64,000 nucleotides of DNA from Nannocystis bainbridge (GTDB lineage Bacteria > Myxococcota_A > Polyangia > Nannocystales > Nannocystaceae): NCBI RefSeq assembly GCF_028368995.1, contig NZ_JAQNDL010000001.1, positions 256,001 to 320,000 of the forward strand, written 5' to 3'. Positions 1 through 29,999 of the stretch are shown here, one piece after another (the stretch's first letter is position 1; every line of letters starts with the position of its first letter). Under the pieces are notes generated by a model. That model saw only the letters and a list, made by a program, of their open reading frames with translations. It searched no databases and was not told the origin of the DNA. The position numbers and the translations under genes were made by a program.

Positions 1-719
1 GCTACGCCGTCGGCAACGAGGGCCTGCGGCCCGAGCGCGGCACCGGCCTCGACGCCGGCCTGGTCGTCAGCACCGCGCCGGCGCGCACCAGCCTCTACGC
101 CCACGCGGCCGGGTTCGTCACCTGGTCCGAGGATCTGATCGCGTGGACCCAGACCGGCCCGTACCTGCGGCCGACCAACCTCGATCGCGCCCGCGTCGCC
201 GGCCTCGAGACCGCGGCCGCGCTGCGTCTCCTGGGCGGCGACCTCGAGCTGCGCGGCAACTACACCCTGCTGGCCACCCGCAACGGCAGCGCCGAGGCGT
301 CGATGCACGGCCAGCCCCTGCCCGGCCGCCCGCGCCACGAGCTGTTCGTGCAGCTCGCCGCCGGCCACGCCTACGACCTGCGCGGCCGCGAGTTCTTGCC
401 TCGCCTCGGCGTCACCGTCGAGCACGCCGCGCGCACCTTCCTCGATCCCAGCGGTCGCTTCGAGGTCCCGGCGCGCACCCTCGTCGGCGCCTTCCTCGAG
501 CTGCACCTGCTCGCGCGGGTCCACCTCGCCCTCGAGGTCCGCAACGTGCTCGGCGCGCGCGTCGCTACCTGGCGGCCGCCGGTCGCCGGGAGCCCGGCGG
601 TGACCGTCCCGCTCAGCGATTTCTTCTTCTTCCCCCTGCCCGGCACCAGCCTCTGGACCACCCTGCGCGTCGACCTTCAGCCGCCGCGCCGCCCGCGAAC
701 CACCGAGAGACCTTCATGA
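1..719 (+). CDS. TonB-dependent outer membrane receptor, C-terminal part (5' truncated), probably BtuB-like
   Basis: Frame from nt 3 reads YAVGNEGLRPERGTGLDAG (GNxxLxPE motif of TBDR barrels), then LELRGNYT, LPGRP, EVRNVL and a PLPG C-terminal strand. Its stop overlaps the next ATG (ATGA). Confidence 0.8.
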   Translation, partial: YAVGNEGLRPERGTGLDAGLVVSTAPARTSLYAHAAGFVTWSEDLIAWTQTGPYLRPTNLDRARVAGLETAAALRLLGGDLELRGNYTLLATRNGSAEASMHGQPLPGRPRHELFVQLAAGHAYDLRGREFLPRLGVTVEHAARTFLDPSGRFEVPARTLVGAFLELHLLARVHLALEVRNVLGARVATWRPPVAGSPAVTVPLSDFFFFPLPGTSLWTTLRVDLQPPRRPRTTERPS

Positions 720-1954
720 TCCGCCGCTTCGCCCTCCTCAGCACCGCCCTCGCCCTCGCCGCCTGCAACCCCTCCAGCGGCAGCACCGACACCGACACCG
801 GCACCGGCACCGAGACCGACGGACCTGGCACGACGGACATGTCCCCCACGACAGGTGAGGCGCCGGTCGTGGTCGAGCTCGACGCCCCCTGCGACTTCGG
901 TCCCGACGGCGCCACCGAGCTCGCGCTCGTGACCAACGACTTCGTCGCCCCCGCCGGGCTCGGCCGCGTCGACACCGGCGAGCGCCAGATCCTCGCCGAC
1001 CTCCTGCCGGCCACCACCGACACCGCCCTCGGCGCGACCGGCGAGTGGCTCGTCATGGTCCACCGCTTCGGCCACAACCGCATCGACGTGGTCGACCGCG
1101 GCGCATGGCTGCTGCGCGGCTCGGTCGACGTCACCCACAGCGCCGCCGACGACCCCAACCCGCAGGGCGTCACCTTCGCCGCCGACGGCCTCGCCTACGT
1201 GCCGCTGTTCGCCGCGCCGGCGGTCCAGATCTACGACTTCTCGGTCGCCGAGTCGTCGGCCTGGCTGCAGGGCGAGATCGATCTCTCGCCGTTCGCCGAC
1301 GCTGACGGCAGCCCCGAGGCCGGACTCGCGCTCGCGTGCGGCGGCGTGCTGTTCGTCGGCATCCAGCGCCTCGTCGACTTCGCGCCCGTCGACAGCAGCT
1401 ACCTCGTCGCCGTCGACCTCGCGGCGCGGGCCCTGCTCGACCTCGACGTCGCCACGGCAGGCACCCAGGGCATCGAGCTGCTCGGCGCCTACCCCAAGCA
1501 GGTCCGCCGCGATCCGGCCGACGCCGCCGGCCACACCGCGCTGGTCCTGACCTCCGGCGTCGAGCGCGTCGACCTGTCCCGAGGGACATCCGAGTGGGCG
1601 GTCGCCCCCGAAGTCCTGGCGGAGGCCAGCATCGACGGCTTCGACCCGCAGGCGTTCGTCGTCGCCCCCGACGGCGCCTCGATCTTCCTCACTGCCACCG
1701 ACGGTGACTATCCGGCCGCGGCCGTGTTCCAGGTCGGCCTCGATGGCGGCGAGCCGACCGCCCCGGTCAAGGTCGTCGCTGGCCTCAACTCCGGCGACAG
1801 GATGCTCGAGAGAATCGGCGGCACGCTGTGGATCGGCGACGCCAACGGGGCGGCGCCGCGGCTCCGCCTCTACGACGTCGCCGCCGCCGTCGAGGTCGAG
1901 GTCGACGGCCTGACGACCAAGGCCGCCCCGTGGACCTTCATCCCCCTGCCCTGA
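716..1954 (+). CDS. Lipoprotein, YncE/BtuG-like beta-propeller
   Basis: ATG716; MIRRFALLSTALALAAC lipobox; Thr/Gly linker; NPQGV..AYVPL and IDLSPFADADGSPE blades; lies directly after the TBDR. Confidence 0.7.
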   Translation: MIRRFALLSTALALAACNPSSGSTDTDTGTGTETDGPGTTDMSPTTGEAPVVVELDAPCDFGPDGATELALVTNDFVAPAGLGRVDTGERQILADLLPATTDTALGATGEWLVMVHRFGHNRIDVVDRGAWLLRGSVDVTHSAADDPNPQGVTFAADGLAYVPLFAAPAVQIYDFSVAESSAWLQGEIDLSPFADADGSPEAGLALACGGVLFVGIQRLVDFAPVDSSYLVAVDLAARALLDLDVATAGTQGIELLGAYPKQVRRDPADAAGHTALVLTSGVERVDLSRGTSEWAVAPEVLAEASIDGFDPQAFVVAPDGASIFLTATDGDYPAAAVFQVGLDGGEPTAPVKVVAGLNSGDRMLERIGGTLWIGDANGAAPRLRLYDVAAAVEVEVDGLTTKAAPWTFIPLP

Positions 1955-1967
1955 GAGACAGGTCCTC

Positions 1968-3188
1968 ATGAACATGTCCGTTCGCACCTGTGCTCTCGTG
2001 GTGGTCGGTCTCGGCTGCGAATTTGCCGGCCCACTGCCCGGCGACGGCCCGCCGGCCACCGACGCGCCGACGCCGATCGCCGGCTGGCCGCGCGAGGTCG
2101 GCGCCTGCGTCGGCGACTCGGCCGCGCCGACGCGGCTGCTCGTGACCACCACCGACTTCGCCACCGGCGGGGTCAGCACGGTCGCGCTGGCGGGCTTCAC
2201 CGCGCTGGCCGACGTCGCGCTCGGCAGCACCGACGCCAAGCCGTTCTTCTTCGACGGCACCGCCTATGTGCTGCACCGCTACGGCCTCGACGCCCTCGAC
2301 GTGCTCGACCCCGACGACGGCTTCCGCCTGCTGGCGCAGCGGGCGATCGTCGCCGGGGACCCCGAGGTCGTCAGCGCCAACCCGCACGCGCTGGTGGTCG
2401 GTCCCGACGGCCGCGGCTACGTCTCGCTGTTCGGCGCGCCCGAGGTGCAGGTGTGGGACCTGGCCGATGGGACAGCTCCGAGGTTGACCGGGCGCATCGA
2501 CCTCTCGCCGCTGGCCGACGCCGATGGCAACCCCGAGGCCTCCGAGGTCCTGCTGTGCGGCGGCGTGCTGTTCCTCGCCGTCGACCGCGTCGACCAGGAC
2601 GCCGGCCTGGTGCCGAACGAGCCGCGGGCCCGCCTCGCGGCCGTCGACCTCGCCAGCGGCGCCGTGCACGACCTCGACCCCGCGACGCCCGGCGCCCAGG
2701 GCCTGGCGCTGCTCGGCGGGTGGGCCCGGCAATTTCGCCTCGACCCTGCCGACCCGACCGGACGCACCGCGCTGGTCCTCACCACCGGCCTCGAGCGCGT
2801 CGACCTGTCCTCGGGGACATCCGCGTGGGCGGTCGCCGATGCCCGCCTGCAGGCCGCCGGCCTGACCGACTACCGCCTGCCGCAGGCGTTCGCGCTCGGT
2901 CCGGGCGGGACCGACGTCTATCTGGCCGCCTACCGCGTCGACTTCAGCGAGGTCGCGCTGTTCCGCGCCGCGCTGGACCGCGACGAGCCGCTCGTCGAGC
3001 TCGCGTCCGGCATGCAGTCGGTCGAGCAGAGCCTCGAGGTCATCGGCGACATCCTCTACTTCGGCGACCGCGCCCACGGGGCCTCGGGCCTGCGCGCGTG
3101 GGACCTGCGCCAGAGCCCGCCCGCGCCGCTGCCGGGCGCCCCGCTCGCGCTCGGCCTCGCCCCCTACGCCGCCGTGGCGATCCCCTGA
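1968..3188 (+). CDS. Lipoprotein, beta-propeller paralog of 716..1954
   Basis: LVVVGLGC lipobox; shares NPH, IDLSPLADADGNPE and ALVLTTGLERVDLS with the upstream paralog. Confidence 0.7.
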   Translation: MNMSVRTCALVVVGLGCEFAGPLPGDGPPATDAPTPIAGWPREVGACVGDSAAPTRLLVTTTDFATGGVSTVALAGFTALADVALGSTDAKPFFFDGTAYVLHRYGLDALDVLDPDDGFRLLAQRAIVAGDPEVVSANPHALVVGPDGRGYVSLFGAPEVQVWDLADGTAPRLTGRIDLSPLADADGNPEASEVLLCGGVLFLAVDRVDQDAGLVPNEPRARLAAVDLASGAVHDLDPATPGAQGLALLGGWARQFRLDPADPTGRTALVLTTGLERVDLSSGTSAWAVADARLQAAGLTDYRLPQAFALGPGGTDVYLAAYRVDFSEVALFRAALDRDEPLVELASGMQSVEQSLEVIGDILYFGDRAHGASGLRAWDLRQSPPAPLPGAPLALGLAPYAAVAIP

Positions 3189-3192
3189 GCTC

Positions 3193-4170
3193 ATGCCCGC
3201 CCACGATCCGCCCCCGTCCTCGCTCGCGCCCGGCGCCCCCGAACCGGGCGAAAATGGGTCGAAATGCCGCGCGCGCGGCCGTAGACTGCCCGCGGTGCTG
3301 CGCGGCCTGCCTGTCCTTTTCGCCCTGTCTGCATGTACAGGTGCGCCCGCGCCCGCGCCCGAGACCGGCGATGCGCCCGCGCACCGGATCGTCTCGCAGA
3401 CGATCCTCTCCGACGAGGTGCTGTGGGCGCTCGGTCCCGCGGCCCAGGCCCGCGTCGTCGGCGTCAGCGCGCTCGCCGACGACCCCCGCTACTCCGGCGT
3501 CGCCGGCGTATGGCCGCCCGCGACCCCGCGCCGCGCCCTCACCTCCGAGGGCCTGCTCGCGCTCGCCCCCGACCTGGCCGTGATCGCCAGCTTCACCTCG
3601 CCCGAAGTGCGCGAGCTGCTGACGAGCCACGGCGTGCGCCTGCTCGAGTTCACCCGCTTCACCGGCTTCGCCGACTACCGCTCCCACGTGCGCCAACTCG
3701 CCGCCGCGGTCGAGGACCCGGCCGCGGGCGAGCGCCTGATCGCCGACCTCGACGGCCGCCTGGCCCGCCTGGCCGCGCGTCGGCCGGCGATCCGGCTGGC
3801 GGCGGTCAGCTGGGGCGACGGCCACGCCGCGGCCGCCGGCACCAGCTTCGACGACGTCGCCGAGGCAGCTGGCCTTTCGAACATGGCTAAAGAGAAAGGT
3901 CTCGAAGGACATGTCCCTGTGGCCCTGGAGCTGATGGTCTCGTGGGACCCGCCGGTGATCGTCACCGGCTGCCCGGCGCCCGAGCCCGACGACCCGGCCT
4001 GCCGCGCCGCCGAGGCGGCCGTAGCCGCGCTGCCGGGCGTGCGCGCGACCGCGGCGGCGCGGGGCGGGCGGATCTTCGCGGTGCCCGCACGCGCGCTCGC
4101 CAGCACCGGCGAGGGCATGGCGCGCGCCGCCGAGATCTTGCAAGACCGCCTGCGCGCGGAGCCGCCGTGA
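3193..4170 (+). CDS. ABC transporter substrate-binding lipoprotein (BtuF/Fe-siderophore class)
   Basis: RIVSQTILSDEVLWALG and EGLLALAPDLAVI motifs. The real start may be GTG3295 (MLRGLPVLFALSAC lipobox). Confidence 0.85.
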   Translation: MPAHDPPPSSLAPGAPEPGENGSKCRARGRRLPAVLRGLPVLFALSACTGAPAPAPETGDAPAHRIVSQTILSDEVLWALGPAAQARVVGVSALADDPRYSGVAGVWPPATPRRALTSEGLLALAPDLAVIASFTSPEVRELLTSHGVRLLEFTRFTGFADYRSHVRQLAAAVEDPAAGERLIADLDGRLARLAARRPAIRLAAVSWGDGHAAAAGTSFDDVAEAAGLSNMAKEKGLEGHVPVALELMVSWDPPVIVTGCPAPEPDDPACRAAEAAVAALPGVRATAAARGGRIFAVPARALASTGEGMARAAEILQDRLRAEPP

Positions 4171-5168
4171 ACCGCACCACCTGGCTGGCCGCGGCCGCGA
4201 TCCCGCTCGCGCTGCTGCTGTCTCTCGGGACAGGTCCGGGCGAGATCGGCCTCGCCGAGGCGCTCGCCACCATCGGTCGCCGGCTCGCCGGCGACGAGCT
4301 CGATCTGCGCGGCGCGATCGTGTGGGATCTGCGGCTGCCGCGGGCGCTGCTCGCCGGCCTCGTCGGCGCCGCCCTGGCGGCCGCGGGCGCGCTGTGCCAG
4401 GGCCTGTTCCGCAACCCGATGGCCGATCCGGGGGTGCTCGGCGTCAGCTCCGGGGCCGCGCTGTTCGCCGTCGTCGGCCTGCTGTTGGGCTTCGACCGCG
4501 CCGGGTTGTGGGCGATCCCGGTCGTCGCGGCGATCGGCGCGGCCGCGGCCATGGGGCTCCTGCTCGCGGCCGCCGGGCGACAGGCCAGCCTCGCCGTCCT
4601 GCTGCTCGCCGGCGTCGCGCTCGGGGCCCTGTGCTCGGCGCTGATCACCGTGTGTCAGGCGCTCGCCTCGCATCAGTGGGACTTCGGGCTCAAGGTCATC
4701 TACTGGCTGATGGGCAGCTTCGAAGGCCGCAGTTGGCCCCACCTGTCGTGGGCCGTGCCCCCCTGCGGGCTCGGGCTCGCGCTGGCACTATGGCTGCGTC
4801 GCGACCTCGACGCGCTCCACCTCGGCAGCGACGCCGCGGCCTCGCTCGGTGTCGACCTCGCGCGCCTGCGCCTGCTCGTGGTCGTCGCTGTCGGCCTCCT
4901 CGTCGGCGCCGCGACCGCGCTGACCGGCGTACTGGCGTTCGTCGGGCTCGTCGCCCCGCACGTCGCTCGCATGTCCTCGGGGCCAGGTCATCGACGTCTC
5001 GTCCCGCTCGCCGCGCTCGTCGGCGCGAGCGCGACCATCCTCGTCGACGCCGTCGCTCGCTCGGCCAGCGGGGTCGTGATCCCTCCCGGAGTGATCACCA
5101 GCCTGGTCGGCGCGCCTTTCTTTCTGTGGCTGCTCCGGCGTCGCGGCCTGCGCGGACTCGCTGGCTGA
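4167..5168 (+). CDS. FecCD/BtuC family ABC permease
   Basis: WDLRLPRALL, QGLFRNPMADPGVLGVSSGA, AASLGVD, FVGLVAPH, GAPFFLWLL; GTGA overlap with the upstream gene. Confidence 0.92.
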   Translation: MNRTTWLAAAAIPLALLLSLGTGPGEIGLAEALATIGRRLAGDELDLRGAIVWDLRLPRALLAGLVGAALAAAGALCQGLFRNPMADPGVLGVSSGAALFAVVGLLLGFDRAGLWAIPVVAAIGAAAAMGLLLAAAGRQASLAVLLLAGVALGALCSALITVCQALASHQWDFGLKVIYWLMGSFEGRSWPHLSWAVPPCGLGLALALWLRRDLDALHLGSDAAASLGVDLARLRLLVVVAVGLLVGAATALTGVLAFVGLVAPHVARMSSGPGHRRLVPLAALVGASATILVDAVARSASGVVIPPGVITSLVGAPFFLWLLRRRGLRGLAG

Positions 5169-5662
5169 GCGCGACGCTTGCACATGCATCGTCGTCACGT
5201 GTCCGCGCGTCGTTCGGACGAACGCGGTCAACTGACCGCACCGCTGCACGCGCACGCCGATCCGTGTGACTTTGTCTGAGCCAGAGCATGCGTTCCTGCG
5301 CTGCGCATCAGCGGCGTGGTGACAGCGCGGCATTACGCGTGCGGCCCATAGACCACGGCGCTGATGTGCGCGACGTCGAAGTCGCTCCACATACAACATC
5401 TTGGGTTCACGCGCGGAGCGCTGTCCACAACTAGTGCCCTGCAGCAAACTCGAAGCGCGGACACGTGCGAACGACTGTCACATTCTCACGCCGGTCGCTC
5501 GTGCACATGCACGCGAGTGACGCGGCTGCACGCTCGCGCGCGGGCAGAATCCGGGACGTCCGCACTGGACGGACCACCGCTTTCGGTTTCTTCTTGTCGG
5601 CCTGATGAGCCCCGGCGCGGAAGACCTCAGCGAGCTCAGCGGAGACGAAGGAAGGTAGCGGA

Positions 5663-6724
5663 ATGAGATTGGTGCACCTGACAGCTCTGGCCTGCGCCGT
5701 CGCCGTCGTCACTGACGGCTTCGACGACGGCGCCAGCGCGGAAGCGGCCCACGATGTCCGGTTCGACGACCGCTACGACCTCGACGGCGACCTGAACACA
5801 GCCGGCCGGACCGGCCCGAGCAGCCTGGACGAAGTTCTGCGGGCGCCCGTTCGCGCCCTCGCGCCCGTGACACCTGCGCCCGTCGAGCCCGCGCTCGATG
5901 AGCCCGCGCAGGTCGCCGCCGACCGCGCACAGGTCGAGCAGTTCCTCCCCCACCAGTGCGTGCACGGCGTCGACGAGCAGCGCCCGCGGCTGACGCGGAA
6001 CGAGCAAAAACGGACCTACGACGTGCTCGCGCACGTCGTCAAGCGGCTCAAGGCCAGCGACGATTTCCTCAAGCTGCTCCAGCTGGTCGCCTCGCGCGAA
6101 TCGAGCCTGCAGCAAGGGCTCGTGCACCGCCTGTCACCTGACCTCGAGGCCAGCCAACAGGCGTGGCGCAAGACCGCCAAGCTCTACGAGGGCAACCCGC
6201 ACCACGCCGAGCACGAGCACTGGCAGACCTACGGCCTGTTCGGCATGAACTCCAACTACTTCACCCAGGTGTGGGACAACCAGGCCGACCCCCGCGTCCT
6301 GTGCGACGCGATCGTCGACATCCTCGTCTATCGCCGCGCCGTCGCCCGCGTCATCCGCAAGGCGGGCACCGCCATCGAGTGCACCGACGCCGCCGGCCGG
6401 ACCTATCAGCACACCACCCGCGCCACCTGGGAGAGCGTGCACCGGGCCGTCAGCGGCGGGAAGATGTGCCCGAGCAAGAGCGAGAACGTCGCCGCGATCA
6501 TGGGCAAGTACTTCCGCGGACGCGCGGCCAAGTTCGGGCTCGACCCTGACAAGCCCGTCACCCTCAAGATGTTGGGCGTGGAGCCGGCCAAGGGCCTCGA
6601 CGGCGCCGCCTGGGCCGACCAGGAGGCGATCGTCATGGGCCTGTGGGCCGAGCTCGAGGCCGAGTGGGCCGAGCACCCGCCGGACGAGCCCGAGCCGGTG
6701 AAGATCGCCCGCACCGGCGTCTGA
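5663..6724 (+). CDS. Secreted protein with possible lysozyme/lytic-transglycosylase-like domain
   Basis: Signal peptide; AAGGAAGG RBS; helix-ES (LVASRESSL) followed by YGLFGM, resembling SLT motifs I and II. Confidence 0.6.
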   Translation: MRLVHLTALACAVAVVTDGFDDGASAEAAHDVRFDDRYDLDGDLNTAGRTGPSSLDEVLRAPVRALAPVTPAPVEPALDEPAQVAADRAQVEQFLPHQCVHGVDEQRPRLTRNEQKRTYDVLAHVVKRLKASDDFLKLLQLVASRESSLQQGLVHRLSPDLEASQQAWRKTAKLYEGNPHHAEHEHWQTYGLFGMNSNYFTQVWDNQADPRVLCDAIVDILVYRRAVARVIRKAGTAIECTDAAGRTYQHTTRATWESVHRAVSGGKMCPSKSENVAAIMGKYFRGRAAKFGLDPDKPVTLKMLGVEPAKGLDGAAWADQEAIVMGLWAELEAEWAEHPPDEPEPVKIARTGV

Positions 6725-6875
6725 TCGGCGCCCGCGCACCCGGACCGGCATCGGACCCGGCCCCCGGGCCCGGCGCCCTGGCCACCGGAACGGCGCTCCT
6801 CGCCGACCCGGCCGGGGCCTCGTTCGCGGTCGCGCGCCGTCCCCGCTGGCGAAGCCGCGGCGGCCCCGCTATCTT

Positions 6876-8417
6876 GTGCCTGTGCTCGCTCGTACGCTGC
6901 ACCTTAACTTATTCGTGTGGACTGCGGCCGTCGCCGCGGCGGGATGTGACCCTTCGGACAGCTCGGGTCAGTCACCGCCGCCGAAGTCGCCTGGACCTGC
7001 GCTGGCCGCCCCTGAAGGCGGCGGCCAGCTGTGCGGCGACGACATCACGCTCGACCTGCGCCGCTCGCTGGTGCTGAGCGAGTTCACGGTGGTGGAGCCG
7101 TTCACCTTCACCCGCGTGATGTCGCAGATCCTGGCCACGAGCCCCGCGCCGGCCGTCACGCCGACGCAGCTCTACCAGCGCTGGTGGGACTACTTCAACG
7201 CCAAGCCCGGCGTCCACCCTGACGCCTTCCACTGCGACGACGAGCTCGTCGACGGCTCACCGGCGATGGGCGCCTTCCCCCACGCCTGCCCGCGCCCCGA
7301 GGGTCGGCTCGCCGACACCGATCCGTTCAGCGACCCGCAGAACAACTTCGACGGCTACATCCCGCTCGGCGTGTTCAACCGCTTCGACCTCGCCCCGCTC
7401 GACGGCAGCAACTGCGGCGAGTACCGCATCGTCTTCGCCAAGCAGTCGGGCTTGTTCGACACCAACGATCGCAACCTCATCATCTTCGAGGCCACCCTGC
7501 CCAACCCGAACCCGAGCTGCGGCATCGAGGGTTGCCGGCCGATCGCGCAGTTCTGGGCCGACCTCAGCGAGATCGACGACATCACCGAGATCCGTGACCG
7601 CGTCGAGGACTTCTACTTCGTCGACGCCGCCGGCGCCGGGCCCGTCGTGCACGCCGACAACTACGGCACCAAGGGCGGCCAGATCCGCACCAACATGTTC
7701 ATGAACGGGCCGAACGCCTGGCAGCTGCGCCAGTTCGAGTTCGTGCACGACTGCGGCGGCTCCGCCTGCATCCGTCCGGTCCTGCTCAAGGACAACCCGT
7801 TCCCCGAGCTCTTCCAGGACGACTCGCCGTGGCTCGGCGCCGAGGCGTTCCAGGAGTGGTTCGTGCGGCAGGTGCCCAACCTCGAGAAGGCCGGCAGCAA
7901 CCTGTTCTTCACCACCGACGTCGGCACCTTCGCCTCCGGCGCCAGCAACTCCGAGGGCGAGTTCGACAACTACCGCATCCAGTCCGGCATCAGCGGCTCG
8001 TTCCGCAGCAAGATCCAGGACGCGATCACCCTGCCCGGCCTCACCGCCGACCAGATCATCAACCGCGCGCTCGCGCTGTCGTGCGCCGGCTGCCACGAGC
8101 ACAACAACTTCGGCGACAACCTCGACTTCGGCGACGGCCTGCCGTGGGAGCCGAGCCTCGGGTTCGTCCACATCAGCGAGGAGTTCACCGCCGAGGGTCC
8201 GTTCGGCACCCGCTTCCCGCTGTCCGACGCGGTCCGCTTCGTGTTCTTGCCGCACCGCGGCGAGGTCCTGCAGAACTTCCTCGCCGAGACCGCCTGCGAG
8301 CCGTGCACCGACAAGGGCGTCAAGCAGTTCGGCCCGCCCGACCCGAGCAAGTTCTTGCCCGACGGCTTCGACAGCGTCGAGGGCATGACGATCGGCGGCC
8401 CGCGCAGCGGCCACTGA
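6876..8417 (+). CDS. Cys-rich lipoprotein with a single CxxCH (putative c-type cytochrome)
   Basis: AAVAAAGC lipobox; SCAGCHE near the C-terminus; strongly biased GC3 codon usage. Confidence 0.65.
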   Translation: MPVLARTLHLNLFVWTAAVAAAGCDPSDSSGQSPPPKSPGPALAAPEGGGQLCGDDITLDLRRSLVLSEFTVVEPFTFTRVMSQILATSPAPAVTPTQLYQRWWDYFNAKPGVHPDAFHCDDELVDGSPAMGAFPHACPRPEGRLADTDPFSDPQNNFDGYIPLGVFNRFDLAPLDGSNCGEYRIVFAKQSGLFDTNDRNLIIFEATLPNPNPSCGIEGCRPIAQFWADLSEIDDITEIRDRVEDFYFVDAAGAGPVVHADNYGTKGGQIRTNMFMNGPNAWQLRQFEFVHDCGGSACIRPVLLKDNPFPELFQDDSPWLGAEAFQEWFVRQVPNLEKAGSNLFFTTDVGTFASGASNSEGEFDNYRIQSGISGSFRSKIQDAITLPGLTADQIINRALALSCAGCHEHNNFGDNLDFGDGLPWEPSLGFVHISEEFTAEGPFGTRFPLSDAVRFVFLPHRGEVLQNFLAETACEPCTDKGVKQFGPPDPSKFLPDGFDSVEGMTIGGPRSGH

Positions 8418-8818
8418 GCCGCTTCACTCCGCCAGCCGCCTTCGCGCGCGAGCCGATCGCCGCGCGCCTCGAGTCGCTCTCCACTCGAGAGCGACGCGAG
8501 CAGCCTCGCGCGAACCGGCCGCCCGCACCGGGGCGCGTGCCCACGCGCTCGACGCACGCGATCGTCCGTCCCGGCCTCTCGCTCCTCGCGGATGCGCCTC
8601 CGCGATCTTGCATGCACGCGCGCTGACTCGCTCGCGCGTGCGACGTGCTGACGCGACCGTCATCTTTCGCTCCCGCCCGCCTCGCTCGTTGCGCACGCAC
8701 GCTGCGGATTCGCGGCCACCGCCTGCCGGAGCGGACCGGAGCCGCGCGTCCGCGTCCGCGTGACGCGACCTGGCCGGGTGGGACCTGCGTGATAGACTGC
8801 GCCGCCGGAGGACCCGCA

Positions 8819-9850
8819 GTGGTCAACGCTTACATCTCAGGGACTGGTTCCTACGTGCCGCCGCGGGTCGTCAGCAACGACGCTCTCATCCACGAGTTCG
8901 GCGTCGACACCACGCACGAGTGGATCGTCCAGCGCACCGGCATCGAGGCGCGCCGGTTCGCCGAGGCCGGGGTGGGCACCGCCGACATGGCCGCCGAGGC
9001 TGCTCGCGCCGCGCTCGCCGACGCCGGGCTCGCCGCCCACGACCTCGACCTCATCATCGTCGCCACCCTCTCGCCCGAGCACGCCTTCCCCGGCAGCGGC
9101 GTCTACTTGCAGCGCAAGCTCGGCCTGTGCGAGGGCGACGACGCCAAGTTCGTGCCCGCGCTCGACGTCCGCAACCAGTGCTCGGGCTTCCTCTACGGCC
9201 TCTCGACCGCGGTCGCCCACGTGCGCGCCGGCATGGCGAAGCACGTGCTCCTGGTCGGCGCCGAGACCCACTCCGCCGCGCTCGACCTCTCGCCCGAGGG
9301 CCGCTCCGTCTCCTCGCTGTTCGGCGACGGCGCCGGCGCCGTCATCGTCTCGGCCACCGACGACGACCGCGGCGTGCGGGGCGTCTACCTCGGCGCCGAC
9401 GGCCGCTTCGCCGAGGTCCTGTGCCAGAAGATCTGGGACATCCGCCAGCGCCCGTTCGTCGCCAAGAACCCCGACCGCAGCGGCACCGTCCCGCCGGAGA
9501 TGTTGTGGGCCAGCATGGACGGCAAGGTCGTGTTCAAGCACGCCGTCGGCGCCATGATCGGCTCGCTGATGCGCGCCTGCTCGTCGCTCTCGCTCGACCT
9601 GCAGGACATCGACCTCTTCTTTTTTCACCAGGCCAACCTGCGCATCAACCAGTTCATCGCCCAGCAGCTGCAGATCCCCGAAGAGAAGGTCCCCCACAAC
9701 ATCGAGCGCTACGGCAACACGACCGCGGCCACCATTCCGCTGCTGCTGGCGGAGAGCGCGCGAGACGGGCGCCTTGTGCGCGGTAAGAAGGTCGCGATGG
9801 TCGCGTTTGGCAGCGGATTCACGTGGGGCGCCGCTATCGCTGACTGGTGA
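8819..9850 (+). CDS. fabH: 3-oxoacyl-ACP synthase III (FabH family)
   Basis: GTGSYVP, WIVQRTGI, catalytic Cys (NQCSGF), His (FHQAN) and Asn (YGNTTAA), FGSGFTWG; GGAGGA RBS before GTG8819. Confidence 0.93.
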   Translation: MVNAYISGTGSYVPPRVVSNDALIHEFGVDTTHEWIVQRTGIEARRFAEAGVGTADMAAEAARAALADAGLAAHDLDLIIVATLSPEHAFPGSGVYLQRKLGLCEGDDAKFVPALDVRNQCSGFLYGLSTAVAHVRAGMAKHVLLVGAETHSAALDLSPEGRSVSSLFGDGAGAVIVSATDDDRGVRGVYLGADGRFAEVLCQKIWDIRQRPFVAKNPDRSGTVPPEMLWASMDGKVVFKHAVGAMIGSLMRACSSLSLDLQDIDLFFFHQANLRINQFIAQQLQIPEEKVPHNIERYGNTTAATIPLLLAESARDGRLVRGKKVAMVAFGSGFTWGAAIADW

Positions 9851-9894
9851 GCCCCTCCACACCTCCTTCCCCTGGCATCGATCAGGGTAGGAGC

Positions 9895-10296
9895 GTGGTA
9901 CGCCGCGCCGCATCGCTCCTCGTCCTCGCCGTTCTCGGGTGTGCCCCGTCGACGACGACGCAGGCGCCGTCGGAGCCGCCCACGGTCCGCACCGACACCG
10001 ACACCGAGCCCGTGCGGGCCCAGCCGCGCCGACCCCCGCCCGCGTTCGTCCAGGCCCTCGCCGAGCTCGAGCGCAACCCCAACCTCTGCCTCCGCCTCGT
10101 CGGCCCGCGCGCGGAGCCTGTCCGAAAAGCCTTGTTGCGAGCCTCCCGCGGCCGCATCGACGAGGCCCGGATCGTCGCCGAGACCGAGCCGGTCGAGCCG
10201 GTCGCCCGCAGCGTCGAATACCGCTTCTTCGTCCAGCCCCCCGCCGAGTCCGGCGGCGTCGGCCTGCACACGATCCACGCCTACATGCCGCAGTGA
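9895..10296 (+). CDS. Small hypothetical lipoprotein
   Basis: AGGAG RBS, GTG start, LLVLAVLGC lipobox. Confidence 0.55.
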   Translation: MVRRAASLLVLAVLGCAPSTTTQAPSEPPTVRTDTDTEPVRAQPRRPPPAFVQALAELERNPNLCLRLVGPRAEPVRKALLRASRGRIDEARIVAETEPVEPVARSVEYRFFVQPPAESGGVGLHTIHAYMPQ

Positions 10297-10381
10297 CCGC
10301 ATGTCCGCCGAGACATGTCCAATCGGGCATGCCTCTGCGGACATGACTTTTAAAAAGAAGCATGTCCCCGGGGACAGGCGC
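10297..10381. repeat. Array of GGACATGTCC-like palindromic decamers (14-bp period)
   Basis: ccgcatgtcc-gccg-agacatgtcc-aatc-gggcatgcct-ctgc-ggacatgact ... aagcatgtcc-ccgg-ggacaggcgc, in the gap between convergent genes. Confidence 0.85.
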
Positions 10382-10420
10382 GAGGACGGCGCGACGAAGC
10401 CTGAGACCTCGCCGGCTGGC

Positions 10421-10611
10421 TCCTCGCTAGCCTCCGAGCGCCCGCCTCGCCTTCGCGCCCTGTTCCTCGCTGGCCTCCGAGCGCCCGCCTCGCCTTCGCG
10501 CCCTGTGCCTCGCTGGCCTCCGAGCGCCCGCCTCGCCCTCGCGCCCTGTTCCTCGCTGACCCGCCTCGCCTTCGTGCCCTGTTCCTCGCTGGCTTCCGTG
10601 CGACCGCCTCG
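10421..10611. repeat. 43-bp tandem repeat, about 4.5 copies
   Basis: Unit tcctcgctggcctccgagcgcccgcctcgccttcgcgccctgt at 10421, 10464 and 10507, followed by degenerate copies. Confidence 0.85.
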
Positions 10612-10662
10612 CTCCTGCTCATCGCCCGCCTCGCCTCTGCTCGGCGCTCGTCTCGCCCGCGC

Positions 10663-11208
10663 TCACGGCCCCGCGAGGTAGTCCGGTGGCACGTGCTCGA
10701 CCAGCCAGACCCCGTTCTCGGCGCGGAAGAACACGAAGCCAGCGGCCACCATCCCCGCCGCGTCGACCCGCAGCACCGCCGGTCGGCCGTGGCGCGCGCC
10801 GACCTTGTGGGCTGTGATCGCGTCGGCCGACAGGTGCACGTGGTGGCGGCGCATCTTCAGCAGGCCCTCGCGCAGGATCGCCGCCACCGTCTGCTCACCC
10901 GTCCCGTGGAACAGCAGCGGCGGCGGCATCGCCGGCACCAGCTGCAGGTCGACCGCCACCGTGTGGCCCTGATTGGCGCGGATCTTCGTCCCCGTGTCGT
11001 CGAACGCGAACCGCTGCTTGTCGCTGGTGCGCACGATCTCCTCGAGCTGCGCCCGCGACATCGGCCGTCGCTTGTGGGCGCACGCGGCCAGCAGCGCCTC
11101 GACCTCGACCCAGCCGCCCGCCTCGAGCTCGAGGCCGAGGCCTGCCGGATCGTGGCGCAGGTGCAGCGACAGGAACTTGCTCAGGCGGACCCGGGAGTTC
11201 GCGTCCAT
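10663..11208 (-). CDS. kptA: RNA 2'-phosphotransferase (Tpt1/KptA)
   Basis: SKFLSLHLRH, SDKQRF, KIRANQGH, LFHGT, RHHVHLS, NGVWL signature motifs. Confidence 0.95.
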   Translation of the reverse strand: MDANSRVRLSKFLSLHLRHDPAGLGLELEAGGWVEVEALLAACAHKRRPMSRAQLEEIVRTSDKQRFAFDDTGTKIRANQGHTVAVDLQLVPAMPPPLLFHGTGEQTVAAILREGLLKMRRHHVHLSADAITAHKVGARHGRPAVLRVDAAGMVAAGFVFFRAENGVWLVEHVPPDYLAGP

Positions 11209-11595
11209 CGCCGCCACGATCGTCGATCTCGCCTCGGGAACAAACCCCTGACAGGCCTGTCGCGCGATCGGGCGACCGCCCGGGCACCGGCGTCGCGCGA
11301 TCTCCCGCCCCGCTCCTGCACCCTCACCAAAGCACAATCATTTCATGCACATCCACCGCAGGCCCCGGCGTTGCAAACCTGTGTTGGCACGGGCGGCGAG
11401 CTCCTTCTCCTTTTCGGCGAGCTGCCCGACTTTGGCTTACTTGGCTTGAACCTGGCTTATCCGCGAAATTAGCCTTCACCTAACTTAGCAGTCCGCCATC
11501 CGCACCACCCCATCGGGTCGAGCCACGCTCGGCCCGATGCCCTTTTGGTCGCCTGACGGCGTCCGCGCCGGGTTTTTCGGCTATCGTCACCGGCC

Positions 11596-12207
11596 ATGGC
11601 CACCGCGCTCCGCGGGACGTGCGTCGGCGCGCTCCTCGTCCTCGCCTGCGACGCCCCGGTTTCGCCCGAGCCGAAGGCCGCACCCGCGGTCCCCGAGCTG
11701 GCCGCCTGCGAGCCGGTCGGCGACGACGCCTGGCCCGAGCCGTGGGCTGACGCCGAGCTCGAGGTCCTGGCGCGGGTCAACGCGCTGCGGGCCCGGGGCG
11801 GCAGCTGCGGCGTCCTGCAGTTCTCGCCTGCCCCGCCCCTGCGCATGCAGCCCAACCTGCGCTGCGCCGCCCGCCTGCACACCGACGACATGGTCGAGCG
11901 CGCGTACGTCAGCTCGGTCGACCCTGACGGCCTCGGCGCCGGCAACCGGATCGCCAGGCTCGAGTACAACGCCGCCACCTTCGCCGAGGTCGTCGCCGTC
12001 GTCACCGAGGACGACATCGACGAGCTCGACGACGCCGACGACGTCGTCACCGCCTGGCGCGACAACCCGACCTCGTGCTGGCAGCTGTTCGCGCGCGAGC
12101 TCACCGAAGTCGGCGTCGGCGGCCGCGAGGCCACCTACATGGCCAAGGAAGCCGAGGAGCCGCAGCGCGCCGCCTACTGGACGCTGACCCTCGCGACCCC
12201 GCGCTGA
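11596..12207 (+). CDS. CAP/SCP-domain lipoprotein (degenerate)
   Basis: Lipobox LLVLAC; VNALRARG, LRCAARLHTDDM, EVGVG, YWT. Confidence 0.85.
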   Translation: MATALRGTCVGALLVLACDAPVSPEPKAAPAVPELAACEPVGDDAWPEPWADAELEVLARVNALRARGGSCGVLQFSPAPPLRMQPNLRCAARLHTDDMVERAYVSSVDPDGLGAGNRIARLEYNAATFAEVVAVVTEDDIDELDDADDVVTAWRDNPTSCWQLFARELTEVGVGGREATYMAKEAEEPQRAAYWTLTLATPR

Positions 12208-12361
12208 CGCCCGCCCGACGCCGACACGCCCCACCGCGCCCCGACCGCCTCGCTCGCCACTCACGCCCGATACGCCCGCCCCGCGCGTCTCCCCACGTCC
12301 CCGCGCGAGGCTCGCGGCCGGACCGTCGCCGTCGCGCGCGCGCCTCTGCTAACCTGCCGGC

Positions 12362-13054
12362 ATGCTCTCGCGCCGCGTTCGACTCACCTGTCTCTTGGCA
12401 CAAGTCTCTTCGACCATGTTCCTCGGGACAGCTTGCAGCGACGACGGCGATCCCCTGACCGCCGGCGAGAGCAACACCGTCGGGCCCGCCACCGACACCG
12501 ACGCGTCCACCGATCCCACCGCCGCCCCGACCGACACCGGCGACACCACCGGCGGCTCGGCCGACGACCCGGCGTGGATGACCCCGTACTGCTACACGGT
12601 GGCCGACACCAAGTGGCTGGCCCCGTGGATCGAGCGCGAGCAAGAGGTGCTCGCGCAGATCAACGCCGCGCGGGCCAAGGGCGCCGACTGCGGGTCGGAG
12701 GGCAGCTTCGGCCCCGCGCCGGCGCTCACCATGGACGTGCGGCTCCACTGCGCCGCGCGCAAGCACTCGCTGGACATGGCCGAGCGCGGCTACTTCGACC
12801 ACACCAACCCCGACGGTCAGGATCCGTTCGACCGCATCGACGAGGCCGGTTACACCGGCTGGGGCGCCGCGGGCGAGAACATCGCCGCCGGCTCCGACGA
12901 TCCCCCGCTGACCGTCCAGGGCTGGCTCGACAGCGACGGCCACTGCGCCAACCTCATGAGCCCCCAGTACAAGCACACCGGCGTCGGCTTCTACGAGGGC
13001 ACCGGCAACCTCACCTACTACTGGACCCAGACCTTCGGCGCGCTGCTGCCGTGA
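12362..13054 (+). CDS. CAP/SCP-domain lipoprotein
   Basis: INAARAKG, AARKHSLDM, GENIAAG, WLDSDGHCANLM, YWTQTFG. Confidence 0.92.
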   Translation: MLSRRVRLTCLLAQVSSTMFLGTACSDDGDPLTAGESNTVGPATDTDASTDPTAAPTDTGDTTGGSADDPAWMTPYCYTVADTKWLAPWIEREQEVLAQINAARAKGADCGSEGSFGPAPALTMDVRLHCAARKHSLDMAERGYFDHTNPDGQDPFDRIDEAGYTGWGAAGENIAAGSDDPPLTVQGWLDSDGHCANLMSPQYKHTGVGFYEGTGNLTYYWTQTFGALLP

Positions 13055-13098
13055 AGCCGCCTGACCCCGGGCCCCCCGCGGTGCTATCCTCGCCGCCG

Positions 13099-13905
13099 AT
13101 GCCCCGCACCCGCCGCAGCCTGCTCACCGGCGCCGCCGGCCTGTGCGCCGCCGCCTGGGCTCGCCCGCTGCGCGCCCAGGAGCCCGGCCTGTTCGGCCCG
13201 CTCGTCGGCGACGAGTTCCGCGAGCCGACCGCCGTCCTCACCGTCGACCTGCCGCAGCTGCAGTACCCCGGCAAGTGGAACCCGCGCCCCGGGGCCATGC
13301 GCGAGCTCGCCGTCGAGCTGCGCCTGCGCACCCGCCTCGAGCCCGTGCGCGAGCCCAGCGTCGTCACCGCCGACTCGCGGCGCCTGTTCGACACCCCGTT
13401 CCTCTACGTCGCCGGCGAGGGCAGCCTGCCGCCGCTCGGCGCCGCCGCCGAGACCGCGCTCGGCCGCTTCCTCGACCTCGGCGGCATGATCCTCTTCGAC
13501 TCCGCCGACGGCGGCGCCGACCTCGGCTTCGAGAAGGACGTCACCGCCTTGCTCGGGCGGATCTTGCCCGGCGCCGCGCTGTCCCGCGTCGCCGCCGACC
13601 ACGTCCTCTACCGCTCGTTCTACCTGGTCGAGACCCCGCTCGGCCGCACCAGCACCTTCGACCACGTGCTCGGGATCCACGAAGAGGGCCGCCTCAAGGC
13701 CCTGCTGGTCCGCAACGACCTCGGCGGCGCGCTGGCCCGCGGCGAGTCGGGCCTGTTCACCTGGCCGTGCGTCCCCGGCGGCGCCGAGCAGCGCGAGTGG
13801 GCCTTCCGCTTCGCCGTCAACATCCTGCTCTACGCCACCTGCACCGACTACAAGGCCGACCGCGCCCACGTCGAGACCCTCCTCCGCAACCGGCGGTGGC
13901 GCTGA
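13099..13905 (+). CDS. DUF4159 domain protein with Tat-like signal
   Basis: RTRRSLL twin-arginine motif; WNPRPGA, PFLYVAG, GGMILFD, DHVLYRSFY, NDLGGA, FAVNILLYATCTDYKAD. Confidence 0.8.
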   Translation: MPRTRRSLLTGAAGLCAAAWARPLRAQEPGLFGPLVGDEFREPTAVLTVDLPQLQYPGKWNPRPGAMRELAVELRLRTRLEPVREPSVVTADSRRLFDTPFLYVAGEGSLPPLGAAAETALGRFLDLGGMILFDSADGGADLGFEKDVTALLGRILPGAALSRVAADHVLYRSFYLVETPLGRTSTFDHVLGIHEEGRLKALLVRNDLGGALARGESGLFTWPCVPGGAEQREWAFRFAVNILLYATCTDYKADRAHVETLLRNRRWR

Positions 13906-13908
13906 TCC

Positions 13909-16260
13909 ATGGAGCGCTGGCGCATCACCGCGGGCCACGTCCCCGGCACTCTCGGCCTGCTGCTGATCCTCGCGGCCGTGGCCCTGGCGATCGTCGAGGC
14001 CGCCCGGGCCTACCGCAAACCTGTCCCTGGGGTCAGCCCGCGGCTGCGCGCCGGCCTGTTCGCGCTGCGCTGCGCCGGCGCCCTCGCGCTGCTGGCCGTC
14101 GCGCTCGAGCTGTCGCTCAGCTTCGAGACCACCAGCGCCGCCGGCCCGCGCCTGGTCATGCTCGTCGACGACAGCGCCAGCATGGGCATCGCCGACGCCG
14201 CGTCGGCCAGCCAGGCGACCATGCGCCGCATCGATCGCGTGCGCGACCTGTGGCGCCGCTCCGAGCCCGCGCGCGCCGACTGGAAGGAGCAGGGCCTCGC
14301 CGTCCAGGTGCGCCGCTTCGGCGAGGGCAGCGAACCGCTCTCCGGCCAGGCCGAGGCCACCCTCGACCTCGACGCCCGCCAGCCCGCCTCCGACCTCACC
14401 CGCGCCTTCGCCGAGCTCGCCGCCATCGACCCCGCCGTCGACCCGCGCCCGCTCGCTGGTGTCATCGTCGTCTCCGACGGCCTCTTCGACCGCGCCGACC
14501 GCGGCGGCGACGACCCGCTGGTGCTCGCCGCCCGCGAGCTCGGCGTGCCCGTCACGGCCGTCGCCGCCGGCGCCCCGCACCTCGTCGACCTCGCCCTCAC
14601 CGAGCTGCGCGCCGGCGAGTTCGCCTTCGTCGAGAACGTCGTCGAGTTCGCCGCCGACATCGAGGCCCACGGCCTCGAGGGCGTCAAGACCGAGGTCGTC
14701 CTGCGCCGCGACGGCCAGGTCGTCGCCACCGAGCCCTTCGTCGCCCCTGCCAGCGGCGAGACCACCGTCCGCTTCGAGGTCGCCCCTGACCGCGTCGGCC
14801 AGTTCGTCTACGAGATCGAGGTCCGCCCCGTCGACGGCGAGGCCAGCCCGCACAACAACCGCCGCGCCTTCGTGGTCAAGGTCCTGCGCGACAAGGTCCG
14901 CGCCCTGCACGTCGCCGGCCGCCCCGACTGGGACGTCCGGGCCCTCCGCACCCTGCTCGGCCGCGACCCCAACGTCGAGCTGCTCAGCTACTACATCTTG
15001 CGCGGGGCCGACGACGCCGACCGCGAGGACCCGTTCGCTCCGCTGTCGCTGATCGCCTTCCCCACCGACGAGCTGTTCAAGGAGCAGCTCGGCAGCTTCG
15101 ACCTCGTCATTCTCCACAACTTCGACGCCCTCAACCACCAGGTCGGCCGCTACTTGCCCGACATCGGCCGCTACGTCGAGGAGGGCGGCGCCCTGGTGAT
15201 GATCGGCGGCGACATGGGCCTCGCCACCGGTGATTATCCCGCGCCCGCGCTCTCGGCCGTCGTCCCGGTCGACCTGCGCGTGCCCACCGGCCTCGACGTC
15301 GAGCCGTTCCGCCCCGCGATCACCGACGCCGGCCGGCGCCACCCGATCACCGCGTGGATCGATCACAGCCGCCTGTCCGATTGGTCGACCCTGCCGCCGC
15401 TCGACAGCTACAACCCCGCCAAGCTGGCCCGCCACGAGGCCGAGATCGGCAGCGCCGTGCTGCTGCGTCACCCCGAGGGCGGCCCGCTGCTCACCATCGC
15501 CGAGCCCGGTCGCGGCCGCGTCCTCGTGTTCAGCACCGGCGCCAGCTGGCGGCTCGGCTTCCACGCCGACCTCCCGATCGTCGACGGCGCGCGGCCTTAC
15601 GATCTCCTGTGGCTCGGCGCGATCCGCTGGCTGCTGCGCGACAGCGCCGCCGACCGCCTCACCCTCGAGACCGACCGCCCCACCTATCTGCTCGGCGCCC
15701 CGATCACCCTGCGGGCCGCCGCGCTCTCGCCCTCCTACGCCCCCGAGGCCGGCGTCGAGGTCGGCTGGCGCGTGCAACCACTCGGCCACGCCGCCGACGA
15801 TCCCGGCGCCGATCCCAACGCCCCCGTCACGATCCTGTCCCAGGGGACATGGACCACCGACGCGCTCGGGCGGGCCAGCGAGACCCTCGGCGGCGGCCTC
15901 TCGGTCGGCGCCTACGAGGCCGTGGCCCAGCGCGCTGGCGGCGACGAGGCCTCCGCCGCCCCGCAGCAGGCGCGCCGCGTCTTCCTCGTCCAGGCCGCCG
16001 GCCGCGAGCTCACCCGCCTCGCCAGCGGCCCCGGCGACGAGCGGCTGCAGCGGCTCGCCGAGGCCACCGGCGGCCGCTTCTTGCGCGCCGGCAGCGACGA
16101 CCTGCCTGCCTCCCCGCCGCTGGCCCCCGATCGCCAGGATCGCGAGCGCGTCGACAGTCGCCGCGACGTCCCGGTCTGGAGCGGCGGCCTCGCCATGGTC
16201 TTGCTCATCGTCTGTCTCGGCGGCGAAGTCCTGGTGCGGCGCCGGGTCGGCCTCGCCTGA
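13909..16260 (+). CDS. Membrane protein with vWA-like and glutamine-amidotransferase-like domains
   Basis: N-terminal TM helices; LVDDSASM and VVSDG (MIDAS-like); NNRR; FDLVILHN and EEGGALVMIGG; ATGGRF; C-terminal TM ending RRRVGLA. Confidence 0.75.
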   Translation: MERWRITAGHVPGTLGLLLILAAVALAIVEAARAYRKPVPGVSPRLRAGLFALRCAGALALLAVALELSLSFETTSAAGPRLVMLVDDSASMGIADAASASQATMRRIDRVRDLWRRSEPARADWKEQGLAVQVRRFGEGSEPLSGQAEATLDLDARQPASDLTRAFAELAAIDPAVDPRPLAGVIVVSDGLFDRADRGGDDPLVLAARELGVPVTAVAAGAPHLVDLALTELRAGEFAFVENVVEFAADIEAHGLEGVKTEVVLRRDGQVVATEPFVAPASGETTVRFEVAPDRVGQFVYEIEVRPVDGEASPHNNRRAFVVKVLRDKVRALHVAGRPDWDVRALRTLLGRDPNVELLSYYILRGADDADREDPFAPLSLIAFPTDELFKEQLGSFDLVILHNFDALNHQVGRYLPDIGRYVEEGGALVMIGGDMGLATGDYPAPALSAVVPVDLRVPTGLDVEPFRPAITDAGRRHPITAWIDHSRLSDWSTLPPLDSYNPAKLARHEAEIGSAVLLRHPEGGPLLTIAEPGRGRVLVFSTGASWRLGFHADLPIVDGARPYDLLWLGAIRWLLRDSAADRLTLETDRPTYLLGAPITLRAAALSPSYAPEAGVEVGWRVQPLGHAADDPGADPNAPVTILSQGTWTTDALGRASETLGGGLSVGAYEAVAQRAGGDEASAAPQQARRVFLVQAAGRELTRLASGPGDERLQRLAEATGGRFLRAGSDDLPASPPLAPDRQDRERVDSRRDVPVWSGGLAMVLLIVCLGGEVLVRRRVGLA

Positions 16261-16328
16261 ACCCGCACGCGCGCCCTCGCCGGCCGCCCCTGCTTTATCG
16301 CGGCCGTCTCGGCTAGAGTCCTTGGCCG

Positions 16329-19513: not shown

Positions 19514-19757
19514 CGCCCTGCGAGGCGAGTGACCGCGTGATCCACCAGCGTCGCCTCGAGATCGCGCAGCTTCGTGGCGAGCACCGCGTGTGCCGCCGCG
19601 ACGAGCGACCTTTCGCCGCTGCGAGGTTCCCCGTGAGCGCCTTCTGCGACCGCGGCGCCGATCGCGTCGGGTTCACGCCGCACCTTGCTGCCGCCTTCAC
19701 ACGCAACCGCCTTCGTCTGGCGCGCCCGCGGCCGCTCGCGCACACTGCATCCGCCGC

Positions 19758-22786
<3,029 letters not shown>

Positions 22787-22787
<1 letters not shown>

Positions 22788-29997: not shown

Positions 29998-29999
29998 CC

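Follow-up and report, generated by a model that had tools for sequence, protein, structure and literature searches.

Copies of a Nannocystis-specific DNA word inside genes and their probable origin by substitution in place

The array in the binding-protein gene and its orthologs

We analysed a 64-kb stretch of the Nannocystis bainbridge genome (11.05 Mb, 71.5% GC), hereafter the window, in which a gene on the + strand at 3193-4170 (start at 3193 or 3295) encodes a periplasmic substrate-binding protein, as judged from its translation, Pfam and our gene call. The Peripla_BP_2 match of the protein (E 3e-16) covers residues 69-300, and a FecCD permease gene (4167-5168; Pfam) overlaps the end of the binding-protein gene by 4 nt, which places the stretch studied here in the middle of an operon for an ATP-binding cassette (ABC) uptake system. 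This stretch, at 3865-3930, had been described in an original prediction as five 14-bp-phased units of a short motif, written into conserved coding sequence through rare codons. The quoted sequence is indeed present at 3865-3930, in frame with the gene, and the segment that it encodes lies inside the Peripla_BP_2 match. An open reading frame that crosses the stretch on the antisense strand has no family match in Pfam, and Rfam, searched over the whole window at gathering thresholds, gave no match.

Units were scored with a weight matrix built on 1479 intergenic units. Of the five claimed units, those at 3879, 3893 and 3907 reached 10.6, 5.4 and 15.9 bits, respectively, and score as motif, in contrast to the outer two, which are not motif-like (1.2 bits at 3865-3878 and -4.1 bits at 3921-3934); the array thus comprises three units (3879-3920), not five. 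The claimed first unit is, nevertheless, rich in rare codons (GCA GCT ... CTT). Each unit of the 14-bp-phased array consists of a 10-nt core and a 4-nt spacer. The three units encode SNMAKEKGLEGHVP, and the core of the last one, GGACATGTCC (3907-3916), is a perfect palindrome, read as GGA CAT GTC C(CT) to give GHVP. The three-unit score of 31.8 for 3879-3920 was reached at 109 coding loci, as compared with a mean of 0.1 and a maximum of 1 in 12 synonymous shuffles of all coding sequences that kept the proteins and the codon usage of each gene. RNA folds of 3865-3934 and of 3879-3920 were unremarkable on both strands (z = -0.9 to -2.1).

A/T-ending codons account for 11 of the 22 codons of the segment, in a genome with a GC content at third codon positions (GC3) of 0.943, and this density is matched at only 112 loci in all called coding sequences. 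The codons that had been named as otherwise rare are so, each making up 1.2-9.6% of the codons for its amino acid in the genome (GCA 2.0%, GCT 2.8%, CTT 1.2%, AAA 4.9%, GGT 5.7%, GGA 2.6%, CAT 9.6% and CCT 3.5%).

We compared the gene with 16 orthologs of 35-100% identity, nine from the genus and seven from other genera; the closest named relatives are four Nannocystis records with an ortholog 89-90% identical. No indel was found at the segment in any of the 16, and it aligns residue for residue with the genera that lack the motif. All 16 orthologs retain the family pattern AGL.N...e.G..GH....lE.l..W(D/N)P, in agreement with the earlier view that the stretch encodes a plausible segment of the family. 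In the nearest other genus GHVP is encoded by common codons, GGT CAC GTC CCC, whereas GGA CAT GTC CC(T/A/G) is present in eight of the nine orthologs from Nannocystis, the ninth having GTG for GTC. The three-unit score ranges from -4.5 to -25.4 in the seven genomes of other genera, from 22.7 to 27.0 in three distant congeners and from 23.5 to 33.0 in five close congeners. This comparison shows a GHVP peptide that predates the genus and in which GGT→GGA and CAC→CAT, both synonymous and both to rare codons, made the perfect core. Later synonymous and amino-acid changes improved the neighbouring units and spacers stepwise: Ser→Glu (TCG→GAA) and the AAA GAG AAA run arose in the close clade, and CTG→ATG (Leu→Met), which makes a second in-phase CATG, is present only in this genome and one relative.

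A search with blastn-short revealed no copy of the array longer than 19 nt elsewhere in the genome (control coding stretches gave 17-29 nt), and no terminal repeats or duplicated target are visible at the stretch. We consider it probable that 3879-3920 is a genuine three-unit copy of a Nannocystis-specific word, described below, which was made in place, within an old conserved segment, by substitutions and not by insertion.

The word across the genome and its hold on codons

In the genome, two CATG tetranucleotides lie 14 nt apart in 3736 cases, as against roughly 100-300 at neighbouring distances, with echoes at 28, 42 and 56 nt, and exact CATG at this spacing forms 801 chains of at least three units, the longest of which has 12. 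The consensus taken from interior units of the chains is GGRCATGYCC with a 4-nt spacer, which is equivalent to an interrupted palindrome, TGYCC-N4-GGRCA (the word), tiled every 14 nt. The ends of the spacer are symmetric (C or T at position 1 in 75%, A or G at position 4 in 73%), and strand asymmetry is weak. The exact word occurs 2828 times, with 1822 copies in intergenic sequence, 979 wholly within called genes and 27 at gene edges, whereas a reversed control word occurs 21 times. The double unit GGRCATGYCC-N4-GGRCATGYCC is found 184 times here and 1-127 times in nine of ten congeners, but is absent from 20 genomes of other genera; its reversed control never occurs. Judging by titles and the beginnings of abstracts, we found no description of this word in the literature on Nannocystis palindromes or repeats and on myxobacterial repetitive extragenic palindromic sequences.

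Word density is highest in convergent spacers (2.23 per kb), followed by tandem spacers (0.7-0.8), divergent spacers (0.26) and coding sequence (about 0.11). Intergenic copies cluster behind stop codons, and in tandem spacers 598 of 806 copies are closer to the upstream stop. The window has typical intergenic phased arrays of this kind behind stop codons at 37261-37357, 22800-22878 and 61443-61860, one of them directly after the Mrp-type antiporter operon (29258-37089). Copies inside genes, on the other hand, are evenly distributed along them; they fall into the three frames with counts of 531, 370 and 78, and 503 of the 979 pass strict filters (interior position and normal flanking GC3).

The excess of the word in coding sequence was tested with 30 synonymous shuffles of all 7818 called genes. 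TGYCC-N4-GGRCA was found 985 times against 73.8 expected (sd 7.2), a 13.3-fold excess, GGRCATGYCC 445 times against 106 and GGACATGTCC 302 times against 35.6, while nine control words, in which the word was reversed, the core altered, the spacer set to 3 or 5 nt or the CATG pair placed at 13 or 15 nt, remained at 0-1.5-fold. Codon choice in peptides compatible with the motif is far from background. In LSxGT peptides (n = 186) Thr is encoded by ACA in 64%, compared with 2.1% genome-wide, and all four motif codons come together in 95 cases, compared with 0.1 expected. Likewise, GHVP peptides (n = 82) use GGA in 72% and CAT in 79%, against 2.6% and 9.6%. Overall, the rare motif codons are 7- to 30-fold more frequent in compatible peptides than genome-wide, and the bias is gone when a neighbouring residue is incompatible (CAT 8.3% in [^GED]HV). 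The peptides themselves are in excess: LSxGT occurs 186 times against 64-98 for seven permutations of the same residues, GHVP 82 times against 16-40 and DMS 411 times against 87-233. These counts show that the word overrides a codon bias of 94% GC3 and raises the peptides that it encodes two- to five-fold.

The whole window is syntenic in five congeners, and we counted codon identity across them over codons with the same amino acid. A/T-ending codons were identical in 61 of 64 cases within motifs but in only 1439 of 3564 outside them, while the corresponding counts for G/C-ending codons were 165 of 177 and 66639 of 75567. Motif sites are, thus, kept between species far better than other rare codons, in line with what the original prediction had suggested looking for among relatives.

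Other coding sites in the window

Eight further coding sites of the window, at 835, 1575, 2806, 15836, 21506/21515, 26014, 35903 and 52895, were compared with motif-free orthologs. All eight are length-neutral, as is the binding-protein array, so that no indel was found at any of the nine. At several of these sites amino acids have been altered to fit the word (DLAQRT→DLSSGT, FLALGI→FLSLGA and GSIPGRRS→GHVPGVMS).

The last of these changes is in a pyrophosphatase-like gene (52614-53039, - strand), for which a motif in the active-site region had been reported. We find there a perfect core of 16.7 bits (52895-52904) with a weaker in-phase unit of 6.4 bits at 52881, the site as a whole (52881-52904) encoding GHVPGVMS. 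None of 15 orthologs has an indel, only the close clade has the word, and the others have GSIPGRRS or similar. The replacement, which lies just before the conserved GDGDPL and occurs only in the word-bearing clade, looks like a DNA signal overriding residues of a conserved region.

The exact TGYCC-N4-GGRCA is also present, as had been noted, at equivalent positions of two paralogs: at 1575-1588 (LSRGT) in the gene at 716-1954 (+) and at 2806-2819 (LSSGT) in the gene at 1998-3188 (+). Pfam assigns no family to either paralog, which leaves their earlier label as propeller proteins unconfirmed. Orthologs of the second paralog in distant congeners and other genera have DLAQRT, DLATLQ or DLRAGQ, of the same length. 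In distant congeners the orthologs of the second paralog are without the word, and those of the first have a half-site or a full site; this patchy presence at equivalent columns points to separate gains or to conversion between the paralogs. The first paralog has in addition a perfect core at 835-844, encoding (T)DMS(P) in an N-terminal T/D-rich linker.

Exact units are found at 15836-15849 (LSQGT; gene 13909-16260, +), at 26014-26027 (LSLGA) in an S49 peptidase gene (23689-26349, -) and at 35903-35916 (LSFGA) in a gene for an Mrp/NADH-antiporter-type subunit (35290-37089, +). The first is kept in seven orthologs of the same genus, and three other genera differ in residues with no gap. An M16 peptidase gene (19938-22787, +) carries a unit plus a perfect core at 21506-21524 (YVRSDMS); about ten adjacent codons differ there from motif-free orthologs, with no change of length. 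Two sites named earlier do not hold up: an MnhD-type site (cited at 32131; 32126-32158), with a best unit of 6.6 bits, and a phosphomutase site (cited at 44371; 44371-44384), with 7.3 bits, are chance-level matches of a strength that roughly one in every thousand coding positions attains (99.9th percentile, 7.2 bits), and they were not counted as copies.

Three exact units (16827, 16872 and 16938) lie within 130 nt, at 16822-16951, in the poorly conserved N-terminal part of another S49 peptidase gene (16748-19513), where indels and stretches that do not align distinguish the close congeners. A four- to five-unit array at 56719-56785 lies inside a weakly scoring open reading frame (55965-57470, -; 501 aa, no Pfam family), the product of which diverges strongly among close congeners exactly at the array; the frame may have been called wrongly, there may be a pair of convergent genes, or the array may be coding and lie in a hypervariable segment. 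At 50305-50511, upstream of and into the start of the gene at 50480-51793, there is a tandem repeat of 54-57 nt in about three copies, each with the exact TGYCC-N4-GGRCA overlapping the perfect GGACATGTCC, which indicates that an array can undergo amplification as part of a larger repeat. A 43-nt tandem repeat (4.7 copies), together with related repeats of 22-33 nt, occupies 10421-10665, between the genes at 9895-10296 and 10663-11217, and has no relation to the motif.

One relative, G007 (loci L028-L031), has many orthologs that align only piecewise, for example over residues 1-203 of 333 or 297-605 of 921, which suggests frameshift-type assembly errors, and its rows were used only where aligned. 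Among public sequencing runs, parts of the binding-protein stretch are present only in soil-metagenome contig sets; four such sets cover window positions 1-20000 in fragmentary, low-depth pieces only.

Maintenance of the word, related systems and alternatives

The indel, codon and conservation comparisons are all favourable, both for the binding-protein array and for the other real sites of the window, to the earlier proposal that such sites arose by substitution toward the motif under selection or drive at the DNA level and not by insertion. They show that substitutions in place have introduced the word and that it is maintained at the level of DNA, in conflict with codon bias and, in part, with the protein sequence. 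We propose that the pressure would act on DNA itself, not on the protein or the fold of the mRNA, and that the word would most likely be read as double-stranded DNA by a putative factor with two-fold symmetry. Reading as a duplex is suggested by the symmetric spacer ends, the weak strand asymmetry, the lack of significant arm covariation in coding copies and the ordinary sense-strand folds. Dense arrays would lie at gene ends because they are best tolerated there, and coding copies would be the same sites, placed wherever the protein can bear the encoded residues. The sites could be kept either by selection for the function of the factor or by a self-reinforcing drive.

The closest analogues of the coding copies are the highly iterated palindrome 1 (HIP1) and DNA uptake sequences. 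HIP1 (GCGATCGC) is described in PMC5861425 as a hyper-abundant cyanobacterial palindrome, conserved in genes beyond codon effects and of unknown function; proposals for it include a role at the level of DNA and a repair drive linked to methylation (PMC4390886). The Nannocystis word resembles it as a short palindromic word that is hyper-abundant in one lineage, both inside and between genes, and that is more conserved between genomes than the same codons elsewhere. Positional conservation of this kind serves Xu et al. (PMC5861425) as an argument for selection on HIP1, and the same test has the same outcome here (61/64 versus 1439/3564). A further likeness to this class is spread by substitution, not transposition, which is shown for nine of nine window sites but not for multi-unit arrays in variable segments. 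The Nannocystis word differs from HIP1 in sequence and phylum, in being an interrupted 14-nt palindrome and in needing rare A/T-ending codons in a genome with a GC3 of 94%. It also tiles into phased arrays of up to 12 units behind stop codons, whereas HIP1, to judge from PMC5861425 and PMC4390886, occurs as dispersed single words.

For uptake sequences, substitution-driven spread, and not transposition, is the accepted model. The uptake signal sequences (USS) of Pasteurellaceae and the DNA uptake sequences (DUS) of Neisseriaceae are like the Nannocystis word in having thousands of copies, many of them coding, with enriched peptides and a bias of reading frame (here 531/370/78). According to PMC2817400, accumulation of uptake sequences in genes about doubled the frequency of the encoded peptides, favours certain reading frames and lies in frames that use preferred codons. 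The Nannocystis word, in contrast, forces rare codons (ACA, GGA and CAT, used in 64-79% of compatible peptides), and it is palindromic and arranged in phased arrays.

Several observations weigh against our reading. The middle unit of the binding-protein array (3893, 5.4 bits) is weak on its own. When that gene is taken alone in six genomes, 4 of 42 columns are variable in the array and 172 of 831 elsewhere, a contrast in the same direction but small, and the variable third positions number 3 of 14 and 99 of 277, respectively. Across the six close genomes 11 of 18 coding sites (union) are polymorphic, so that sites decay. On the favourable side, among the combinations of genome and site without the exact word 23 of 34 differ by one or two bases, and those with at least four differences stem from three sites in poorly aligned segments. 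The genes come from our own codon-likelihood caller and not from curated annotation, and the symmetric reader of the word remains putative.

The longer coding arrays elsewhere in the genome also belong on this side. We drew eight, the two longest and six random ones from 64 interior loci, and seven of them were each set against a close and a distant congener as well as three other genera. Length neutrality was shown for none of the seven, all of which are in indel-rich or lineage-specific segments. Three (L083, L085 and L088) lie in segments absent from all out-of-genus homologs; for three others (L086, L087 and L090) distant homologs show gaps of 2-15 residues within the array or next to it, and some of these homologs share only about 30% identity and may be paralogs; and L089 has no homolog beyond the close clade. 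The nine-unit, 126-nt array of L083 (G000:C1:2998365-3000764, nt 511-636) is read through as protein in an 800-aa gene, and its segment is missing from the homologs of three other genera and of a distant congener, so that it may be an array that was inserted into a coding linker or has expanded there in situ. With the seven arrays in variable segments, the in-place model is shown for single units and for the binding-protein array, not for all coding arrays, and long coding arrays may be products of insertion, or of local expansion, in linkers that tolerate them. The binding-protein array stands out because it is located in a conserved domain segment.

As to what keeps the word, molecular drive in place of selection is a serious but tentative candidate. 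DNA would be copied or repaired toward the word, through biased uptake and recombination, a proposal made for uptake sequences, or through methylation-linked mismatch repair, a proposal made for HIP1, and the coding copies would be a cost to the proteome and not functional sites. Such a drive would fit the overriding of a strong codon bias, the changed residues beside the conserved DGDP segment of the pyrophosphatase-like protein and the turnover of sites in single-base steps, as well as the two- to five-fold enrichment of encoded peptides, of the kind reported for uptake sequences in PMC2817400. The core, moreover, contains CATG, a short palindrome of a type recognised by methyltransferases, the connection being one of analogy with the HIP1 model (PMC4390886). 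The positional conservation of rare codons, however, is what PMC5861425 takes as an argument for selection on HIP1, although a drive that restores near-matches would yield the same conservation. A bias of uptake or repair alone, on the other hand, does not predict the phased arrays, with as many as 12 units, that stand at gene ends.

The sites could also have been made by length-neutral templated patches, that is, short gene-conversion-like tracts copied from arrays elsewhere, and not by independent point mutations, which we consider rather unlikely. The two are indistinguishable at the pyrophosphatase-like and M16 sites, which count against our reading to this extent: the replacements there (GSIPGRRS→GHVPGVMS and DYTRRSTPAGP→DYVRSDMSCGP) involve some 14 base changes in 21-30 nt between conserved flanks, with five to ten adjacent codons changed together. 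The build-up at the binding-protein site, however, is graded over three depths of the tree, and its core needed only two synonymous changes. Furthermore, none of the tracts at the binding-protein, pyrophosphatase-like and M16 sites has a match longer than 19-23 nt elsewhere, the same range as in controls, and most polymorphic sites differ by one base.

A role of the word in RNA, where mRNA hairpins with 5-bp arms and a 4-nt loop would keep the coding copies by serving stability, processing or translation, is distinctly unlikely. Intergenic copies do cluster after stops (2.23 versus 0.26 per kb in convergent and divergent spacers, with 598/806 nearer the upstream stop), and two of their features favour hairpins over our reading: mild covariation of the arms (C..G 146 versus 85.7 expected) and slightly more G.U-compatible pairs on the transcribed strand (104 versus 70). 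There is, thus, some room for a minor hairpin component in the intergenic copies. In coding copies, in contrast, arm covariation is not significant (C..G 22 versus 15.5 expected, p = 0.08), and the G.U asymmetry runs the opposite way (85 versus 120). Sense-strand folds of the binding-protein stretch are no better than those of shuffles (z = -1.07 and -0.91), the symmetric spacer ends are those expected of a duplex site, and, as mentioned, Rfam has no match in the window.

In-frame insertion of a mobile element, of the type of a miniature inverted-repeat transposable element (MITE) or a repetitive extragenic palindromic (REP) element, is very improbable. The binding-protein stretch is a local A/T-rich island in a gene of 75% GC, and three of the seven sampled multi-unit arrays lie in segments missing from other genera, both of which would suit an insertion. 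Yet the stretch shows no indel in 16 orthologs, no visible terminal repeats or target duplication and no long copy elsewhere, and the 14-nt unit is not a multiple of three. Nor was a Y1 (REP-associated tyrosine, RAYT) transposase found: Y1_Tnp (PF01797) had no match in this genome (completeness 90.5%) but did match in 6 of 14 control genomes. REP elements are extragenic. Like them and like bacterial interspersed mosaic elements (BIMEs), the word is an imperfect palindrome that gathers at the ends of genes, above all between convergent ones, but 979 exact Nannocystis units (503 under strict filters) are inside called genes and held there, the unit is far shorter, the genome has no Y1_Tnp match and the coding copies bear no insertion signature. 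To a MITE it is similar as a small repeated sequence with inverted symmetry, and differs in the absence of length polymorphism at the nine coding sites, of target duplication and of any long shared copy, so that the earlier argument against a simple MITE stands. Both REP/BIME and MITE fail in the defining features examined here.

The least probable alternative is chance resemblance, in which the rare codons and CATG cores would follow only from protein requirements or local composition. Chance-level scores are indeed seen for two of the five claimed units and for the MnhD and phosphomutase sites. Shuffles that preserve protein and codon usage, however, yield the three-unit score at 0.1 coding loci, as compared with 109 in the genome, and other genera encode the same or a similar peptide with common codons.

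HIP1 raised the question, open ever since (PMC5861425), of why some bacterial lineages fill the genome with a single short palindrome. With 10 specified bases in 14, the word is long and chance copies are few, so that gains and losses can be traced site by site, and the extreme codon bias makes every synonymous step toward the word visible. The genus offers word-rich and word-poor species (from 184 down to 0-15 double units), with none in sister genera. It is, therefore, a clean system for measuring how a DNA signal overrides codon usage and amino acids, for finding the reader and for telling selection and drive apart. As regards annotation, an A/T-rich island in a Nannocystis gene is not necessarily an insertion, a frameshift or foreign DNA.

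Finally, we put forward as a possibility, and with some doubt, that an active genus-specific system, made up of a symmetric reader together with uptake, recombination or repair, keeps converting near-matches into the word wherever the protein tolerates it, even beside catalytic segments. If so, the arrays at gene ends would be the main working sites, and Nannocystis would offer a counterpart of HIP1 or USS in a myxobacterium that can be cultured, with a word that is much longer and hence easier to trace; the proteome of the whole genus would be continuously reshaped by a non-coding signal.

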